DNA from: a virus
Reading direction: 5' to 3' (one strand)
DNA: 64,000 nucleotides
IMG/VR virus record: IMGVR_UViG_3300009103_001934
Span: 64,001-128,000 of that record
Made by a program: the position numbers and the translations under genes. Below are positions 6,910 to 61,269 of the stretch, piece by piece (the first letter of the stretch is position 1; each line of letters starts with the position of its first letter). The notes beneath the pieces were generated by a model, which was given only the letters and a program-made list of their open reading frames with translations, did no database searches and had not been told where the DNA came from.

Positions 6910-7327
6910 GGGAGCGTACTGGATTCGATTTAGAACCTTACGCCAGATTGCAAGCAGAGGATAATGGTTGGCCTCTTTAAATATCCATTAACAACATATA
7001 TGCCAATAGTGATATTGACATGGAGTTCGCTCCTTCTTTAGCTGAAGCTGACGAGATTCTCGCCAAGTTCGGCTACGTGGAGGAAGAAGAGCTCCAGCTG
7101 GCAGCATAAGTTCTGCCCCGTCCTACTCTGGATGCTCGTTAAGGAGCTAGGGCGTCGACAGCGAGCAAAAAAACTAGGAAGGGTGAGGAGTCTAGGATAA
7201 ATAAAGTGCCTCCAACCTCGTGTGTAGTTGTCAGTGATGAAGCACGAAAAATAACACTGACTAAGCTTGTAGTACATTTGAGCCGATGGCTTTAAAGACG
7301 CGGGTTCGACTCCCGCCGCTTCCACCA
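6910..7327 (+). ncRNA. ssrA: tmRNA
   Basis: GGGAGCG pairs with CGCUUCC-ACCA, giving G3.U70; GGAUUCGA 5' motif; T-arm GCGGGUUCGACUCCCGC; tag ORF 7002-7109 ends in LAA*. Confidence 0.95.
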
Positions 7328-51620: not shown

Positions 51621-52031
51621 ATGGAAAACAACGAACTATCAAAAACGGAAAAGCTCGACGTAGCACTCCAAAGTCATAAGTTCTACAATCACCAGTGCGT
51701 AGAATTAGAGAAGAAAATCAACATTAAGATTGATAGCATTTTTCAAACAGAAGAAACAGGAAAGAATATAAGTAAGAAAGATATTTTCGAGACGGTTGGT
51801 TTGGTAAATCAACTACTCTCCCTGTCAAGTAAGTATATGATGGAAGGCAAAAATGTTGTAAGTGAGTTAGAAAAAGTAGACCCAAAAGAAATTGAAGCGG
51901 ATTTTGCAAAAGTAATGAAAAAGCAATTAACCGCGATGAACGAAAAACAAGAGGCAATTCACGATAGAGTGAGAGAGATACAACAAATGCTGATTGAGAT
52001 GTATAATGTTGATGAAGATGATACTTTTTAG
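51621..52031 (+). CDS. Hypothetical coiled-coil protein
   Basis: AT-rich ORF between rIIA and rIIB. Confidence 0.6.
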   Translation: MENNELSKTEKLDVALQSHKFYNHQCVELEKKINIKIDSIFQTEETGKNISKKDIFETVGLVNQLLSLSSKYMMEGKNVVSELEKVDPKEIEADFAKVMKKQLTAMNEKQEAIHDRVREIQQMLIEMYNVDEDDTF

Positions 52032-52093
52032 TAAAAAAGACTTGTGTTAGAATAGGAAATCGACTAGAATAGAAAGATAGAGGAAACAAAATT

Positions 52094-52903
52094 ATGATAC
52101 CGCACATATTAACAGAAAACAGTCTGACAGTGGTGATAAATGGTCAGGCTCAAACCATGAACAGTGACCATCCAGCTTGGGAACAAGCGAAGGATGCACT
52201 CAAGAGTTCCGAATGGGAACGGCTTGAGAAGATGTTCGATGTGTCTCATGCCGTAGAGGATTACCTCGACGATGATGCCAACATCGAGGTAAAGGACGGA
52301 GCAGTATTCTACGGGGGCGAATCCGTTCATAACTATTGCGTAGACAAGATTCTCGATTTCATGCGGGATGGTCTACCATATCAACCCTTGGTTAAATTCC
52401 TTGGAAAGCTCATGGCGAATCCCTCTCGTCGTGCCACAGAGGAGTTGTATCGGTTCTTGGAGCATAAATCCATGCCCCTGACCCCAGAAGGCAACTTCCT
52501 CGCTTACAAAGGCGTGACGAACGATTTCAAGGATTGTTATAGCCGCAAGTTTGACAACTCTGTTGGACAGACCTTGAGCATGATTCGTAACAGTGTTTGC
52601 GATGATGCCAATATCGGTTGCTCTAACGGGTTTCATGCTGGCAGTTATGAATATGCCAAGGGTTACGCTTCTAGCGGGGGCAATCTGATGATTGTGGAAA
52701 TTGACCCATCTGATGTGGTCAGCGTCCCTCACGATTGCGACTGTCAGAAGTTGCGTACTGCGTCATATAAAGTCGTAGGTCACATGGAGAGTATCGACGC
52801 TCCCCCGCTGGACGATGGTATCAATTACGACTATTACTCCGACGAGGAGAATGAGGCATACGCCGAAGGGTACGAACAAGCCAAAAAGGACTTGGGGTAC
52901 TAG
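52094..52903 (+). CDS. rIIB: rIIB-like protein
   Basis: L..F...LM.NPS.RA..ELY.FL, G.FLAYKGV, CS.GFHAGS..YA, VVSVP.D....KLR. Confidence 0.85.
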   Translation: MIPHILTENSLTVVINGQAQTMNSDHPAWEQAKDALKSSEWERLEKMFDVSHAVEDYLDDDANIEVKDGAVFYGGESVHNYCVDKILDFMRDGLPYQPLVKFLGKLMANPSRRATEELYRFLEHKSMPLTPEGNFLAYKGVTNDFKDCYSRKFDNSVGQTLSMIRNSVCDDANIGCSNGFHAGSYEYAKGYASSGGNLMIVEIDPSDVVSVPHDCDCQKLRTASYKVVGHMESIDAPPLDDGINYDYYSDEENEAYAEGYEQAKKDLGY

Positions 52904-55819: not shown

Positions 55820-55865
55820 ATAAAAATAAACTTGAATTTAGTCAGGAAGTAGGCTAATATATAGA

Positions 55866-55938
55866 TGTGGGTGCAACGCCCACAGTTCGTTCATCATCAT
55901 CGAATCCTCCTGCGGGAAACTGCGGGGGGATTTTTTTT
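55866..55938 (+). ncRNA. Candidate ~70 nt small RNA
   Basis: TTGAAT-N17-TAATAT promoter (55832-55860), 5' hairpin, GAAA-capped terminator with T-run. Confidence 0.55.
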
Positions 55939-56179
55939 GTATTTTCTTTAAAACAGTGTAAATAATAATAAGACCTTGCTAAATAAATAAATAAGGCAAG
56001 CTCAACAGGTTATGTTCAAATAAGCTTTGTAGAATAGGTTCGTCAAATATAGAACTGAAATAAAGTAAAAATAAAACAGGCCCAAATAAGGTAAGGTTTA
56101 AACTAAATGAGAGTCAATCTCAACGTCCCTCCTTTATGCTAATGAGACTCATTCTCAATTTCACCGGTCCCGATGTTGG

Positions 56180-56280
56180 CAATCAAAATTCCAAGAAAAT
56201 GATCGACAAACTATTTTGCCGCTCACGAATGATCGACAAACAAATTTGCCAATCAAAATCTTCCCAAAATGATCGACAAA
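56180..56280. repeat. Direct-repeat cluster AATGATCGACAAA x3
   Basis: Copies at 56198, 56228, 56268; CAATCAAAAT at 56180 and 56250. Confidence 0.85.
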
Positions 56281-56297
56281 AAAAAGTAAAAAAAGGC

Positions 56298-56326
56298 TTG
56301 CACTAAAATGGGATGTACGGTATACT
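56298..56326 (+). promoter_or_regulatory. sigma70-type promoter with no downstream ORF
   Basis: TTGCAC-N17-TATACT. Confidence 0.75.
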
Positions 56327-56332
56327 ATTAAA

Positions 56333-56770
56333 ACAGTGAGGGTAACACCTCCACGATCTTTGAGACAATTTAAGAAGGCGACTGTGGTAGTCCTCACGCA
56401 AGTGAGTGCCCTCGCGGGAAAGCCCCCAGTGGAAGCGCGACGAAACTGGACGGTGATACGATACCGGAGGGATGGGGTTCGACTCCTCACGCCCTAACAA
56501 TTTAAGCCTTGGGTGACGGAACAAACGTCCGACAGAGGAAACGGCCCAAGCAATTTTTACTCCGGCGACGGTTGGAGTAAGGGAATGGCTGAATAACCCT
56601 CCATCATAAGGGGTAAGGCACAGGGCCGCGCGTTAGAGTGCAATCGTATGAGGCGCGTGGTTCTGGTAGACTGGTAAACTTGAACTGTATTGTGCACTGG
56701 TCTTGATGGTAATGCAGCAATCCATCTTCCCATTAATTTAGCATAATCCTGAGGTTGGTGAAAACCATTA
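56333..56770 (+). ncRNA. Candidate large structured ncRNA
   Basis: No + strand ORF of 60 aa or more; many helices with G.U pairs, GNRA loops and a TTCGACT T-loop. Confidence 0.65.
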
Positions 56771-56837
56771 AAGAGATATTAAGCAACAACGCCGAAATCC
56801 GCCTCTGATTTTTTTTGCCCTAATGTTAATTTTTTGC

Positions 56838-56871
56838 TTGACACGCCGGGACCGGTCCCGGCGCCTGTCAA
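56838..56871. repeat. GGGACCGGTCCC element 1
   Basis: TTGACA..GGGACCGGTCCC (56848-56859)..TGTCAA. Confidence 0.9.
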
Positions 56872-57137
56872 GCTTTTTTTATTCACAGCCTGTGAGAATT
56901 TCTTAAAAAGGGGCGATTTCTCCGGTGTGAAATTCGGCGTATATAAGAAACTATTTGACCCCATACCCTGCAAAAACAGTGTCAAGCTCAAAAACAATTA
57001 CCCTATATAAACGCATTTAATTAGCCTAATTAAAAAAGATGTGTGTGACGTGCATTTTTTTCTTGCCAGTGATTAGGAAGTGTGAGATAATGGTTTTAGT
57101 CGATTGAGACATAACTACTAACGAAAGAGAACGAACT

Positions 57138-58073
57138 ATGCCTATTACCGCAAAACAAAGCAAAAACAAAGATTGGGATTTCACCGTAGCACAGGAGGAG
57201 CTTTTCCTGCCTGACGGCAAGAAGTCCGGTTTCTTCGCGTCCCGCCGCCTCGACAACAACGAGGTGCTGGGCTGTCACACTAGCCGCTACGGCATCGTCC
57301 AGAATGGCGACCTAGTGGAAAAAGCCGAGAGTGCTTTTCGCCGCAAGGGATTGGGCGATTTTGAGCGCAACATCTATGTGACTGACGGCGGAGCCAAGCT
57401 GCGCGTCAATTACGACTTCCAAGGTCACGATATTGAAGTGCCAGAAGTGGGTGACAAGATGGGCTTTCGCCTGACCTTGCAAAACTCATTTGACCGCTCG
57501 CTGCGCGTGTCCTTTGCGCTCGGTATGCTTCGCCTCGTTTGCACCAACGGTATGCAGACGCTCGAAAAGGAATTGGATATGCTCAAGAAGCACTCCAAGA
57601 ACTTTGACCTCGGCGCGTTGCTGACTGATGACGCAATCGACAAGGCTATGGCTACGTTCACCAACACGGGGAACACATACGCCGCGCTGGCTCGCGTTGG
57701 AGTTACTCAAGAGCAAGGCATCTTCGCCCTGCAAAACCAAGCCAACACTGGTTTGATTTCTGACAAGGTGCGCGAGGGTATCGCAAGCGTGTGGAACAAC
57801 CCACGCGAGGATGGTGCTGACGGTTCGGTTGGTGATGACCGCAACCTCTACCAACTCTACAACGCTGCCACGCAGTACCTCACCAGTGACAACTTGGTTG
57901 ACAAGAAGTCTGGCGATGCTGTCGGCACGTTCGAGTCCACCCGCTTCGAGTACGCGAACCGCGTTAGCTCGCAACTGCTCAAGCGGTTCAACCTCGCCAG
58001 CGACAACCCCAAGCGGTTTGACAAACTGGTTGCGGTTGCCAAGGCTGACGGCGTAAAGGTCGAGAACAACTAG
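57138..58073 (+). CDS. DUF932-family protein
   Basis: Y.IVQN, GAK, L.L.NSFD.S......G.LRLVCTNGM, LY..YNA.T; promoter at 57063-57091. Confidence 0.8.
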   Translation: MPITAKQSKNKDWDFTVAQEELFLPDGKKSGFFASRRLDNNEVLGCHTSRYGIVQNGDLVEKAESAFRRKGLGDFERNIYVTDGGAKLRVNYDFQGHDIEVPEVGDKMGFRLTLQNSFDRSLRVSFALGMLRLVCTNGMQTLEKELDMLKKHSKNFDLGALLTDDAIDKAMATFTNTGNTYAALARVGVTQEQGIFALQNQANTGLISDKVREGIASVWNNPREDGADGSVGDDRNLYQLYNAATQYLTSDNLVDKKSGDAVGTFESTRFEYANRVSSQLLKRFNLASDNPKRFDKLVAVAKADGVKVENN

Positions 58074-58117: not shown

Positions 58118-58138
58118 GCGATTGTGGAAACTTTTTGC

Positions 58139-60497: not shown

Positions 60498-60572
60498 TGG
60501 AATTTATTGTCCTTGTTGCCATCGGGTTGTATTTCGGCGCAAAGCTTAGTCGATAAAAATGACATTTTTTGC

Positions 60573-60608
60573 TTGACAGCCGGCGGGACCGGTCCCGCGA
60601 GATGTCAA
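60573..60608. repeat. GGGACCGGTCCC element 4
   Basis: Core at 60585-60596 between TTGACA and TGTCAA. Confidence 0.9.
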
Positions 60609-60701
60609 GCTTTTTCTTTGTTATTTTTTTATTTGACACAAAGTCGGAAGTGGGGTATTATATAAACAGTGCGAACGAACTAACTAAAACTAAAAAAACT
60701 G

Positions 60702-61169
60702 ATGAACAACCTACATTCATATACTAACTACATCACTGGCACAGAACTTGAGAACGGAAAGATTCTCCTGTATGCTGGCAAAACACGCAACGGTATCGAT
60801 GACCGTAAGAAAGGCAAAATGGCTTGCGGATTCATCGCTGGCGTTGGCCTAGATGGTCGTCTGTTTGACACCGTCCATTCTAACACTAACACCAAAAACG
60901 ATAAGCTCACGGAGCAACGTCACATCAACACGATTCGTGCCGTGGCGCAATTACTCCCTGACGTTATCGTTGCTGGTAACACTTATGACGATGGATTTTA
61001 TGGGGGAATCATTTCGTCCATCAGTCCTAGCGTCTACGACAAAGTCGTAAGCTGGGTACAGGGTACGCGCACTATGACAGAAAAGCGCATGGTGGCGAAC
61101 AAGCGAAAGCTGGCTCGAAAGCTCGCTCAAGTGAAGCGAGCTAGGCAAGCAAAGAAGGCTTTGGCTTAA
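60702..61169 (+). CDS. Hypothetical protein
   Basis: Promoter TTGACA-N17-TATTAT at 60633-60661; weak YAGKT similarity to GIY-YIG. Confidence 0.65.
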   Translation: MNNLHSYTNYITGTELENGKILLYAGKTRNGIDDRKKGKMACGFIAGVGLDGRLFDTVHSNTNTKNDKLTEQRHINTIRAVAQLLPDVIVAGNTYDDGFYGGIISSISPSVYDKVVSWVQGTRTMTEKRMVANKRKLARKLAQVKRARQAKKALA

Positions 61170-61269
61170 CCCTAGTAGGGGGGAGAGAGTTTGGCGTGAA
61201 TGCTTCGCCTCTTGAGTGGCTCTCTCCCCTCTTGACTTTTCAACAGAAACCCATTATACTTTTATACTT

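Follow-up and report, generated by a model that had tools for sequence, protein, structure and literature searches.

The central question raised by this locus is whether a promoter-led stretch of phage DNA with no apparent protein product gives rise to a single non-coding RNA, to the long leader of the gene that follows it, or to a series of RNAs with roles of their own. The window, which is the whole stretch of 64,000 nucleotides that was analysed, belongs to a 178-kb phage, and a first-pass annotation had read part of it as a promoter-driven, ORF-free, multi-domain phage RNA gene on the + strand, a description which is supported by both the sequence and the homologues. As had been stated, the region is free of + strand ORFs of 60 aa or more; the longest frames, of 56 and 53 aa, have no family in Pfam or PHROG, the one of 53 aa is interrupted by stops in the related locus L112, and the frames are deleted in L002. 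The coding readings of 56336-56497 (+) and 56161-56490 (-) were rejected, having no family and no conservation. The stretch had also been described as GC-richer, and its tRNA-like part (58%) and its manA part (50%) do exceed the genome (40.8%). The reading developed below, which we consider somewhat more probable than its negation, is that the phage has in 56278-56816 a self-contained transcription unit, which gives one untranslated precursor of ~485 nt with serial structured RNAs, or, in short, a Nus-protected polycistronic ncRNA operon in which manA is a trans-acting RNA and not a riboswitch. Some 40% of the RNA (manA) is already known, and the remainder is a new arrangement. The parts of the unit and of its right-hand border are as follows.

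56278-56297, + strand: left edge of the cassette, an A-rich tract, AAAAAAAAGTAAAAAAAGG
56298-56326, + strand: sigma-70-type promoter, TTGCAC, a 17-nt spacer and TATACT, recognized from sequence and conservation
56336-56354, + strand: 5' leader hairpin in the boxB position, GTGAGG-GTAACA-CCTCCAC, a hairpin kept in relatives
56353-56372, + strand: boxA-like element ACGATCTTTGAGA, then CAATTTA, recognized by consensus match
56375-56496, + strand: T module, a 122-nt tRNA-shaped RNA
56497-56506, + strand: linker ACAATTTAAG, the same motif as after boxA (56366-56374)
56508-56550, + strand: B module, a 43-nt hairpin closed by CTTGGG/CCCAAG
56558-56736, + strand: full-length manA RNA (Rfam RF01745), recognized by the Rfam covariance model
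56746-56816, + strand: 3' module and first intrinsic terminator, stem ATC-CT-GAGG / CCTC-T-GAT, recognized by its fold
56836-56880, + strand: backbone palindromic terminator, GCTTGACACGCCGGGACC/GGTCCCGGCGCCTGTCAAGC and a T run, recognized by its fold

The unit is a discrete cassette. L112 is homologous to it over exactly 56278-56812, at 88.7% identity and with unrelated flanks, and the genes that surround it change: the cassette precedes a DUF932 gene in the window and a homologue of 60660-61174 in L002, L003 and L112, and is found elsewhere in L004. Since it occupies different genomic slots among close relatives, it is not bound to one downstream gene. The promoter that had been proposed is present (TTGCAC at 56298-56303, TATACT at 56321-56326) and conserved in L002, L003, L004 and L112, and it was left unlisted by a generic scan because its -35 matches the consensus at only 3 of 6 positions; other arrays have promoters of the TTGACA/TATTAT type at the equivalent position. 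The A-rich tract, which lies directly upstream of the -35 and also precedes the promoter in L002, may be an UP element, judging from that position, and transcription would be expected to start near 56332-56334. Contigs of relatives from four RNA-library runs (three studies) cover T, B and part of manA, and one of them, of 335 nt, bridges 56354-56651; these contigs are not taken as evidence of transcription or of transcript ends, because their depth is low, DNA carry-over is possible and one extends upstream of the promoter.

The largest domain of the unit, comprising its 3' 180 nt, is manA, which is matched at 77.9 bits (gathering score 55.2, E 4e-18) over model positions 1-192 of 192, untruncated. 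The last four helices listed in the first-pass annotation are present and all belong to this domain. A match to a known Rfam family had been named beforehand as the outcome that would remove the novelty of the RNA, and for the manA part the novelty is removed; the label “unassigned” accordingly fails for 56558-56736 and holds for the 5' 225 nt, which have no Rfam match at E <= 10. Over the wider interval 56150-56900, Rfam at the same threshold gives chance-level matches only besides manA, and on ten related loci it gives manA and tRNAs only.

The family is commonly found in potential 5' UTRs and was originally described as cis-regulatory (Weinberg et al. 2010, Genome Biol 11:R31), and Rfam types it as Cis-reg; moreover, an ORF starts within 45 nt downstream (14-41 nt) in ~28 of 63 distinct manA loci. 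All of this would suit a reading in which manA controls the DUF932 gene (57138-58073) in cis, as a riboswitch in its 5' UTR, and the elements upstream of manA form a long leader. In the window, however, manA does not stand in the 5' UTR position of a cis-regulator: ~400 nt, two terminators and one promoter separate it from the DUF932 start, the promoter (TTGCCA-17-GATAAT at 57063) belonging separately to that gene. The cassette homology, which in L112 stops at 56812, ends at the cassette's own terminator, the downstream gene is a different one in L002, L003 and L112 and different again in L004, and in 11 loci manA abuts tRNA genes and not an ORF. A riboswitch serving DUF932 is in our estimation quite unlikely. 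The cis position is a matter of context that lies outside the RF01745 model, so the membership of the window copy in the manA family stands, and the ORFs directly downstream at ~28 of the 63 loci mean that a riboswitch role may be played elsewhere.

The first terminator has eight T at 56809-56816 after its closing stem, which, as judged by eye from the alignment, reads GAGG/CCTC in the window and in L003, and GCGG/CCGC in L002. The backbone terminator, for which the fold of 56737-56890 has z = -3.0, is common to L002 and L003, where it is upstream of the DUF932 gene, and copies of its palindrome bound other gene cassettes; it lies outside the cassette and marks the right-hand boundary of the slot.

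In 11 of the 63 manA loci a canonical tRNA lies no more than 22 nt away on the same strand (one of these then has five tRNAs), so that manA is commonly co-transcribed with RNAs of the tRNA type. The copy in the window resembles the rest of the family in being full-length and from a marine phage, like most known members, and differs in that it does not adjoin an ORF and forms part of a self-terminated unit of several RNAs headed by boxA. For this lineage, such a setting speaks for an RNA that acts in trans.

The 5' 225 nt can be divided, by sequence comparison, into an rrn-like leader with hairpin and boxA, a tRNA-shaped RNA outside Rfam and a conserved hairpin. The single-sequence fold of the 5' half is no better than that of shuffled sequences (z = 0.05 on the + strand, -0.87 on the - strand), and helices beyond chance can therefore be established only by comparative evidence. 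For the T module this evidence comes from 22 distinct homologues, found in DNA of marine viruses and metagenomes, in the alignment of which 98.2% of cells pair, as compared with 30-44% when the partners are slid, and 10 pairs change on both sides; RNAalifold independently recovers the helices, with 14 compensatory pairs. The homologues were retrieved with an exact pattern taken from the T core, and the near-invariance of 19 nt in that core is for this reason partly an artefact. The same pattern has 25 matches in bacterial genomes, all without the flanking T-loop and GAAAGCC, which are dismissed as chance occurrences in GC-rich genomes. The structure that emerges has the following elements.

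56375-56380 with 56490-56495, + strand: acceptor stem, 6 pairs with one A.C mismatch
56380-56392, + strand: D arm with the loop GTGGT, a D-loop with GG
56393-56406, + strand: anticodon-like hairpin with a GCAA loop
56409-56471, + strand: giant variable arm of ~63 nt, closed by CCCTC(G)CGG/CCGGAGGG, with CCAGT/ACTGG inside and the loop GGAAGCGCGACGAA
56473-56489, + strand: T arm, canonical
56496, + strand: discriminator A

Most of the helices listed in the first-pass annotation hold up. Its CTCAC/GTGAG and CCAGT/ACTGG helices are present, each one base away from where it had been placed (they lie at 56393-56406 and 56426-56449), its CTTGGG/CCCAAG helix at 56508-56550 is present, and its T arm, TGGGG-TTCGACT-CCTCA, is a genuine mimic of a tRNA T arm. 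The outer AGGG/CCCT helix that it drew around the T arm is replaced by two covarying pairings, GAGGG (56467-56471) with CCCTC (56409-56413) and CGCCCT (56490-56495) with AAGGCG (56375-56380). Covariation among homologues, which had been suggested as a check, is found as compensatory pairs in both the T module and the B stem.

The T module has in common with class II tRNAs and the tRNA-like domain of tmRNA an acceptor stem that stacks on a T stem of 5 bp, a 7-nt TTCRANY loop (TTCGAnT), a GG in the D-loop and a long arm that separates the T arm from the anticodon-like arm. It differs from them in that the anticodon loop is not conserved, a GCAA tetraloop in the window replacing the 7-nt loop with U33 of a tRNA, in that the variable arm has 63 nt, as against 4-24 in tRNAs, and carries conserved sequence, in that CCA is not encoded, A-ACA standing at the 3' end, and in that G3.U70, a tag ORF and pseudoknots are absent. 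Neither ARAGORN nor Rfam at E <= 10 calls a tRNA in it; there is likewise no ARAGORN or Rfam call of a tmRNA, and no frame or resume codon is conserved, the genuine tmRNA of the phage being called by both at 6910-7327. Model R1 gives 131 bits for the window and 44 bits for the divergent copy in L004, and it cross-matches class II tRNA (32 bits) and, weakly, the tRNA-like 3' end of tmRNA. The family is absent from Rfam, and there are enough sequences for a model. When the region and the surrounding 14 kb were compared by blastn with 50,697 isolate phage records, nothing matched, and the nearest isolate by RIIA, Ruegeria phage RpAliso (29% identity), has no manA and gives weak tRNA-type matches only with model R1. 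A loop of the module, GUGGAAGCGCG, was presumed to resemble the T-box GUGGUACCGCG, a resemblance that was dropped because an Rfam T-box match is absent.

The lack of a tRNA call by ARAGORN and Rfam, the imperfect acceptor stem and a 5' half whose MFE equals that of shuffles could be taken to mean that the module is the remnant of a tRNA gene that has decayed into a pseudogene beside manA, and that the other helices arise by chance. Such a remnant would not be expected to show 98% pairing across 22 distinct homologues, with compensatory changes in four to five helices, the acceptor and T stems both included, or to have a divergent homologue detected at E 4e-8 in a family spread over viral contigs and marine metagenomes; the stems and flanks of the homologues differ, which argues against one recent clone. 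Decay is accordingly regarded as extremely improbable.

Another alternative concerns what the module is for. tRNA-like elements serve as processing punctuation in other transcripts, as mascRNA does for MALAT1 and as tRNAs do in mitochondrial transcripts, and the T module, which combines an acceptor-T minihelix and a D/T corner with the lack of a usable anticodon loop and comes directly after the leader and ahead of the other modules, might be a processing handle only, recruiting RNase P and 3' trimming in order to free manA. A handle, however, has no need of a variable arm of ~63 nt that is conserved almost to the base while the stems vary, and the module stands alone from the predicted +1 in L085, L109 and L114 and also occurs in arrays without manA. 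That it is a handle and nothing more seems unlikely.

The B module has the conserved interior GGTGA..AACAAACG.CCG..AGAGG.A.CGGCC, and in the alignment of its 9 distinct homologues 96.7% of cells pair (22-37% when slid) and 4 stem pairs change on both sides. It precedes manA in the window, L002 and L004 and follows it in L022 and L077; in L081 and L084 it stands ahead of T. Among ~25 related loci (some of them near-duplicates) the promoters and first modules differ and the modules are shuffled, with orders that include T-B-manA, B-manA, T-manA-B, C-T-E and B-T-F, among others. Between the modules of all arrays stands A(C/T)AATTT, and in the window similar linkers flank manA (CAATTTT at 56551-56557 and TAATTTAG at 56734-56741). 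These linkers may be processing sites, in the form of an RNase E-type A/U-rich site and of the 3' trailer of the tRNA-like end. Modules C, E and F, likewise conserved, occur in the same arrays.

The leader is the remaining part of the 5' region. Its element ACGAUCUUUGAGA agrees with the B. subtilis rrn boxA consensus AUGAUCUUUGAAA, which binds NusB (PMC13753749), at 11 of 13 positions, and with the gamma-proteobacterial consensus GYTCTTTAANA, which may not be that of the host, at 9 of 11, the mismatches being A at position 2 and G, for the A of the consensus, at position 8. The element lies ~22 nt past the predicted start, in a promoter-proximal, untranslated leader, and has no second promoter-proximal copy in the 178-kb phage. 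TCTTTGARA is found between the array promoter and the first module in the ~25 related loci, and the motif is absent where the T module begins at the predicted +1. The hairpin that precedes the element differs in sequence among relatives, where it has GNRA loops (GATGAGG-GAAA-CCTTATC in L004, AGGG-GAAA-CCCT in L079 and L118), and the arrays L020, L038 and L120 are without it.

A small hairpin also opens the B. subtilis rrn operons just before boxA, and boxA by itself is enough for the rrn antitermination complex to form; CRISPR operons, too, are headed by boxA (PMC13753749). In E. coli rrnH, ACAGTGAG and a hairpin stand at the same place as in the phage leader and the boxA region reads GCTCTTTAACAATTTA; ACAGTGAG...CTCTTT.ACAATTTA is common to both. 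The likeness to an rrn leader thus lies in a promoter-proximal hairpin followed directly by boxA at the head of a long untranslated RNA; the difference is that the version in the window is phage-encoded and heads small ncRNAs instead of rRNA, and no boxC was identified in it. The boxA elements upstream of CRISPR arrays and of suhB provide a further known comparison. The idea that the leader reproduces a host rrn leader exactly was rejected, because among 802 sampled Gamma-/Alphaproteobacteria genomes the 15-mer TCTTTGANACAATTT is no more frequent than background and in no case lies upstream of a 16S start; the predicted boxA, as a match at the level of the consensus, stands despite this.

A boxA-like leader at the head of a cassette that is always followed directly by terminator palindromes and more + strand genes also raises the possibility of a device like lambda nut or HK022 put, in which the leader, perhaps with help from the structured RNAs, would modify the polymerase for read-through of the terminators into downstream genes and leave the RNAs without a function in trans. 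We hold this to be distinctly improbable: it leaves unexplained why manA, T and the other modules are conserved, covary and are shuffled as units, the downstream genes have conserved promoters of their own, and the T module is also found alone without boxA (L085, L109, L114).

Under the preferred reading of an autonomous, Nus-protected operon, the sigma-70-type promoter, as its sequence and conservation suggest, would fire, and the first 40 nt of the transcript would mimic the layout of an rRNA-operon leader, a small hairpin and then a boxA-like sequence. Host NusB-NusE(S10), NusG and NusA would load at boxA and render RNA polymerase Rho-resistant, a protection that would be needed because the transcript is untranslated, and for which rrn operons and CRISPR arrays use such antitermination. 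The polymerase would then copy the T module, the 43-nt B hairpin and manA before halting at the terminator of the unit. The precursor may be cut at the A/U-rich ACAAUUUA-type linkers and also at the ends of the tRNA-like RNA, with RNase P acting on the 5' side and RNase E/Z-type trimming on the 3' side, and since stable RNAs would be released in this way, manA would act in trans as one of them, plausibly as a self-assembling particle of the kind seen by cryo-EM, and not as a cis riboswitch. The T RNA would keep the acceptor-T minihelix and the D/T-loop corner that processing and tRNA-binding proteins read, would present its conserved ~63-nt domain in place of a usable anticodon loop, and may be a tRNA mimic that delivers this domain to the tRNA-binding machinery or titrates that machinery. 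No CCA-adding enzyme, RtcB or Ro (TROVE) protein was found in the 178-kb phage.

The particle has a precedent in that manA RNAs are reported to self-assemble in vitro into decamers and a 60-mer cage, on cryo-EM evidence in a 2026 preprint (bioRxiv 10.64898/2026.07.01.735769), and the cage RNAs ROOL and GOLLD occur near phage tRNA islands, the linker of GOLLD being able to carry tRNAs (PMC12286853). The comparison with GOLLD and ROOL drawn in the first-pass annotation was thus apt: they too are structured cage RNAs, borne by phages and prophages and lying beside tRNAs, and here manA is covalently joined to a tRNA-shaped RNA, with the differences that manA is much smaller (~180 nt) and that its partner is a tRNA mimic and not a decoding tRNA. 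There is no homology to GOLLD or ROOL in sequence or structure: no Rfam match to either reaches the gathering threshold in the window, or E <= 10 in 56150-56900. We also take YrlA (Y-RNA-like) and the T4 stable RNAs species 1 and 2 to be comparable, as non-decoding RNAs with tRNA-like modules. YrlA and the T4 species, the latter from the tRNA cluster, are co-transcribed or processed with tRNAs, and their function is obscure. There is no Rfam match to YrlA or Y RNA here, and no TROVE domain in the 178-kb phage.

A bolder reading, to which we attach little credence, is that this marine phage lineage makes an RNA-only machine, in which a manA shell or ring and a tRNA-mimic adaptor or bait with an invariant 63-nt arm would derive from one Nus-protected transcript and the T mimic would bring host RNase P, EF-Tu, synthetases and anticodon nucleases to manA. 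The variable-arm loop AAGCGCGA contains self-complementary GCGC/CGCG tetramers. If such a machine were made, manA, GOLLD and ROOL would follow a common logic, that of a cage RNA with a tRNA-type partner.

For the manA family, an orphan riboswitch candidate since 2010 for which cages were reported in 2026, this locus and its relatives are hard to square with cis-regulation, and they define a tRNA-shaped RNA family outside Rfam and point to the conserved modules C, E and F. Three testable ideas follow: that phages may shield untranslated RNA arrays from Rho by means of boxA and Nus factors, as CRISPR arrays do; that manA may be a trans-acting stable RNA in these phages; and that the cage RNAs GOLLD, ROOL and manA may be functionally linked to tRNA-type RNAs.

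The first-pass annotation of this locus as a promoter-driven, unassigned, multi-domain phage non-coding RNA of about 430 nt (56298-56770) is half right: the observation is real, but about 40% of the RNA belongs to a known family, manA. The remainder comprises a leader resembling an rrn antitermination site, a family of tRNA mimics that is not yet filed and one short conserved hairpin, all within a mobile non-coding RNA operon. The claimed promoter (TTGCAC-17 nt-TATACT) is found at 56298-56326 and, as had been stated, the + strand downstream of it lacks any ORF reaching 60 aa; the shorter ORFs of both strands match neither a Pfam nor a PHROG family. Rfam identifies a full-length manA RNA (RF01745) at 56558-56736, which spans the model from position 1 to 192 and scores 77.9 bits (E 4e-18; gathering score 55.2), and the label "unassigned" does not hold there; the last four helices listed (TTACTCC/GGAGTAA, 12-bp, 8-bp, GATGG/CCATC) are present, but all are manA helices. 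The 5' 225 nt of the RNA have no Rfam match at E up to 10 and no tRNA by ARAGORN. The other features of the unit (56278-56816) and of the adjoining backbone are these:

56336-56354, + strand: leader hairpin, 3' of the predicted start, then ACGAUCUUUGAGA-CAAUUUA
56375-56496, + strand: tRNA-shaped T module
56508-56550, + strand: B module, a 43-nt hairpin
56746-56808, + strand: closing stem of the cassette terminator, then eight U (from folding)
56836-56880, + strand: second terminator, in the backbone (from folding)

The minimum free energy of the 5' part equals that of shuffled sequence (z = 0.05), and because helices in a single sequence prove nothing, relatives were collected. Homologues were pulled from IMG/VR and marine metagenomes by an exact pattern from the T core, which gave 22 distinct alignable sequences (24 on first count); in bacterial genomes the pattern gave 25 matches, 25/25 of which failed the flanking-feature filter. 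The search pattern itself fixes 19 nt of the core, and the rest of the core, outside the pattern, is still almost invariant. The elements of T, in the window and in the alignment (A3), are as follows:

Acceptor stem, relatives (A3): GTTGGTG/CACCAGC, GTTGGTG/CACCAAT, AGGGTG/CACCCT, ACGGTG/CACCGT, GTTGATG/CATCAGC
Acceptor stem, window: AAGGCG/CGCCCT, one A.C mismatch
D-loop: TGG present (A3)
Anticodon-like arm: without a conserved loop; the window has a GCAA tetraloop, other members have loops of 7 to about 40 nt
Giant variable arm: closed by CCCTC(G)CGG/CCGGAGGG, in other members by CCTGAC(G)CAG/CTGGTCGGG
Variable arm interior: CCAGT/ACTGG and nearly invariant single-stranded segments
T arm: loop TTCGAnT

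The check on homologues suggested in the first-pass annotation came out in favour of covariation: in the 25-pair structure 98.2% of cells are paired, compared with 30-44% when partners are slid, ten pairs are changed on both sides, and the covariation score was reached by 0/500 shuffles; RNAalifold arrived independently at these helices and added the anticodon-like stem, counting 14 compensatory pairs. A covariance model of T (R1) scores the window at 131 bits and the divergent copy of L004, a related phage, at 44 bits (E 4e-8), and gives a cross-match at 32 bits to a class II tRNA and a weak one to the tRNA-like end of the tmRNA in this phage. The window's phage has one T copy. The first acceptor base of the stand-alone T in the related locus L085 lies 7 nt 3' of the -10 box, as expected if the functional 5' end is at the acceptor. 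The 3' linker of that copy (L085 2216-2420, + strand), ACAATTT, runs directly into ATGATGAACGAC..., a small Cys-rich (zinc-ribbon-like) ORF without a Shine-Dalgarno sequence, and processing at the mimic's 3' end would there yield a near-leaderless mRNA.

The B module is known from nine distinct copies with a conserved interior and four compensatory pairs in the closing stem (96.7% paired, compared with 22-37% when slid), and its position relative to manA and T differs between phages. The arrays, whose module joints are A(C/T)AATTT(A) linkers, have these orders:

boxA-T-B-manA (window and L112, a metagenome contig)
boxA-B-manA
boxA-T'-B-manA-C-E
boxA-T-manA-B
boxA-T-manA
boxA-manA-C-E
boxA-B-T-F
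boxA-C-T-E
boxA-T-E

None of the array modules other than manA is filed in Rfam. More conserved structured modules outside Rfam occur in the same arrays (L082 about 5090-4700, - strand; L083; L004 8215-8330; L038 11975-12100; L081 1350-1600), and C (GGTGCTGGGTTACAGGCC), E (CGCCTCAACCGGA...GAAGCCGTGGCG) and F (containing GAAAGGTGGGGAAACGGGAAACCGCC) each look like a separate RNA family.

The same promoter, leader and manA occur in three IMG/VR phages, which share 83-97% identity with the window in their DUF932 and clamp-loader genes, and the region between leader and manA varies among them: in L002 the 43-nt hairpin and then manA directly follow the leader, L004 has a divergent tRNA-like part, and L003 has other inserts. 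Synteny mapping puts the cassette ahead of DUF932 in the window; in L002, L003 and L112 it precedes the homologue of 60660-61174, and in L004 it has yet another location. L112 is 88.7% identical to the window over exactly 56278-56812, with unrelated flanks. Because the slots differ and the L112 homology has sharp ends, the unit is a self-contained mobile cassette that brings a promoter and a terminator of its own, and not the leader of one particular gene. Its slots in the window, L002 and L112 are bordered by copies of the palindrome GCTTGACA..GGGACCGGTCCC..TGTCAAGC. This GC-rich palindromic terminator stands at window 56836-56873, with similar copies near 58132 and 60565-60615 and several in L112; copies lie at the borders of gene cassettes whose order varies between close relatives, and the palindrome looks as if it served both to end transcription and as a junction at which recombination shuffles cassettes. 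Just 5' of the cassette (56160-56290, + strand), TGATCGACAAA and TTGCCAATCAAAAT are repeated (three and two copies); also intergenic in related phages (L022 1590-1700, L082 14-110, L085 2440-2530), they may be operator or iteron-like sites. A short ORF-free unit at 55832-55938 (+ strand), ending in a strong terminator (stem 55902-55933 and T run), is possibly a small RNA able to pair with shared start-codon contexts (ATGATGAACGA).

The E. coli rrnH leader, fetched as a comparison, reads ...ACAGTGAG(hairpin)...GCTCTTTAACAATTTA. The window leader matches the boxA consensus of gamma-proteobacteria, GYTCTTTAANA (PMC5725501), at 9/11 positions. In B. subtilis rrn operons a small hairpin comes first and the boxA-like AUGAUCUUUGAAA, which binds NusB directly, immediately after (PMC13753749); the window leader matches it at 11/13. 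The exact GAUCUUUGAAA is carried by L079 and L118, and the exact leader 15-mer is not an rrn leader in any of 802 sampled proteobacterial genomes. TCTTTGARA stands between array promoter and first module in about 25 related loci, which include near-duplicates and vary in both promoter and first module; it is absent in L085, L109 and L114, where the tRNA-like RNA begins at the predicted +1. The 178-kb phage has no other copy close to a promoter. A boxA is enough to nucleate an antitermination complex, and CRISPR operons are also preceded by one (PMC13753749). These comparisons suggest that the leader is a Nus-factor antitermination signal that would shield the long untranslated transcript from Rho.

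First described in 2010 in marine metagenomes, T4-like cyanophages and two gamma-proteobacteria, manA was then a riboswitch candidate, commonly in 5' UTRs (PMC2864571). Of 63 distinct manA loci, about 28 fit the classical view of a 5' UTR element, with an ORF start at most 45 nt downstream; in 11 a canonical same-strand tRNA lies at most 22 nt away, and one of these is followed by five tRNAs; and boxA-led arrays with no ORF next to them account for 11, plus the window. In six IMG/VR cyanophage-like contigs (L058, L069, L055, L035, L016, L026) tRNA genes follow manA by 4-12 nt, five in a row in L058, and manA would there head a tRNA operon, not an mRNA. By cryo-EM, manA RNAs are reported to self-assemble into decamers and one member into a 60-subunit icosahedral-like cage (2026 preprint, bioRxiv 10.64898/2026.07.01.735769). 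ROOL and GOLLD, phage RNAs for which cage formation has also been shown, are found near tRNA islands, and the GOLLD linker can carry tRNAs (PMC12286853); manA likewise occurs near tRNAs.

The source record is a 178,487-nt IMG/VR phage (the window is its bases 64001-128000), complete per CheckV, of 40.8% GC, with RIIA/RIIB, a clamp-loader-like AAA protein, DUF932, L5 gp82-like and GP88-like genes, its own tmRNA and three tRNAs (Rfam, ARAGORN). The full tmRNA (window 6910-7327, + strand; RF00023, 125.7 bits) is of the one-piece form, a possible hint to the host group, and has an unusually long, acidic tag (EADEILAKFGYVEEEELQLAA, ARAGORN). For the RIIB-like ORF 52094-52903 (269 aa; region 51621-52903, + strand), the match to the RIIB profile is confined to its C-terminal quarter (positions 819-1045 of phrog_609); RIIB may be split here, or much below its usual length. 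The phage has no gene for Ro, for a CCA-adding enzyme or for RtcB, and any partners of the array RNAs would therefore be host proteins.

Beyond the anatomy, conservation, covariation, cassette boundaries and manA membership, which are established, a mechanism can be proposed in which the leader would act by Nus-dependent antitermination, the precursor would be cut at the linkers and tRNA-like ends, manA would have a role in trans, and the T RNA would serve as a mimic or adaptor. Three studies contributed four RNA libraries whose contigs contain array relatives, with one contig covering T, B and part of manA; with DNA carry-over possible and ends not visible in contigs, these were given no weight as expression evidence. 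Phage stable-RNA clusters and manA are already known; what is new is their arrangement here and a T family absent from Rfam. The locus reframes manA and lends itself to clean experiments.
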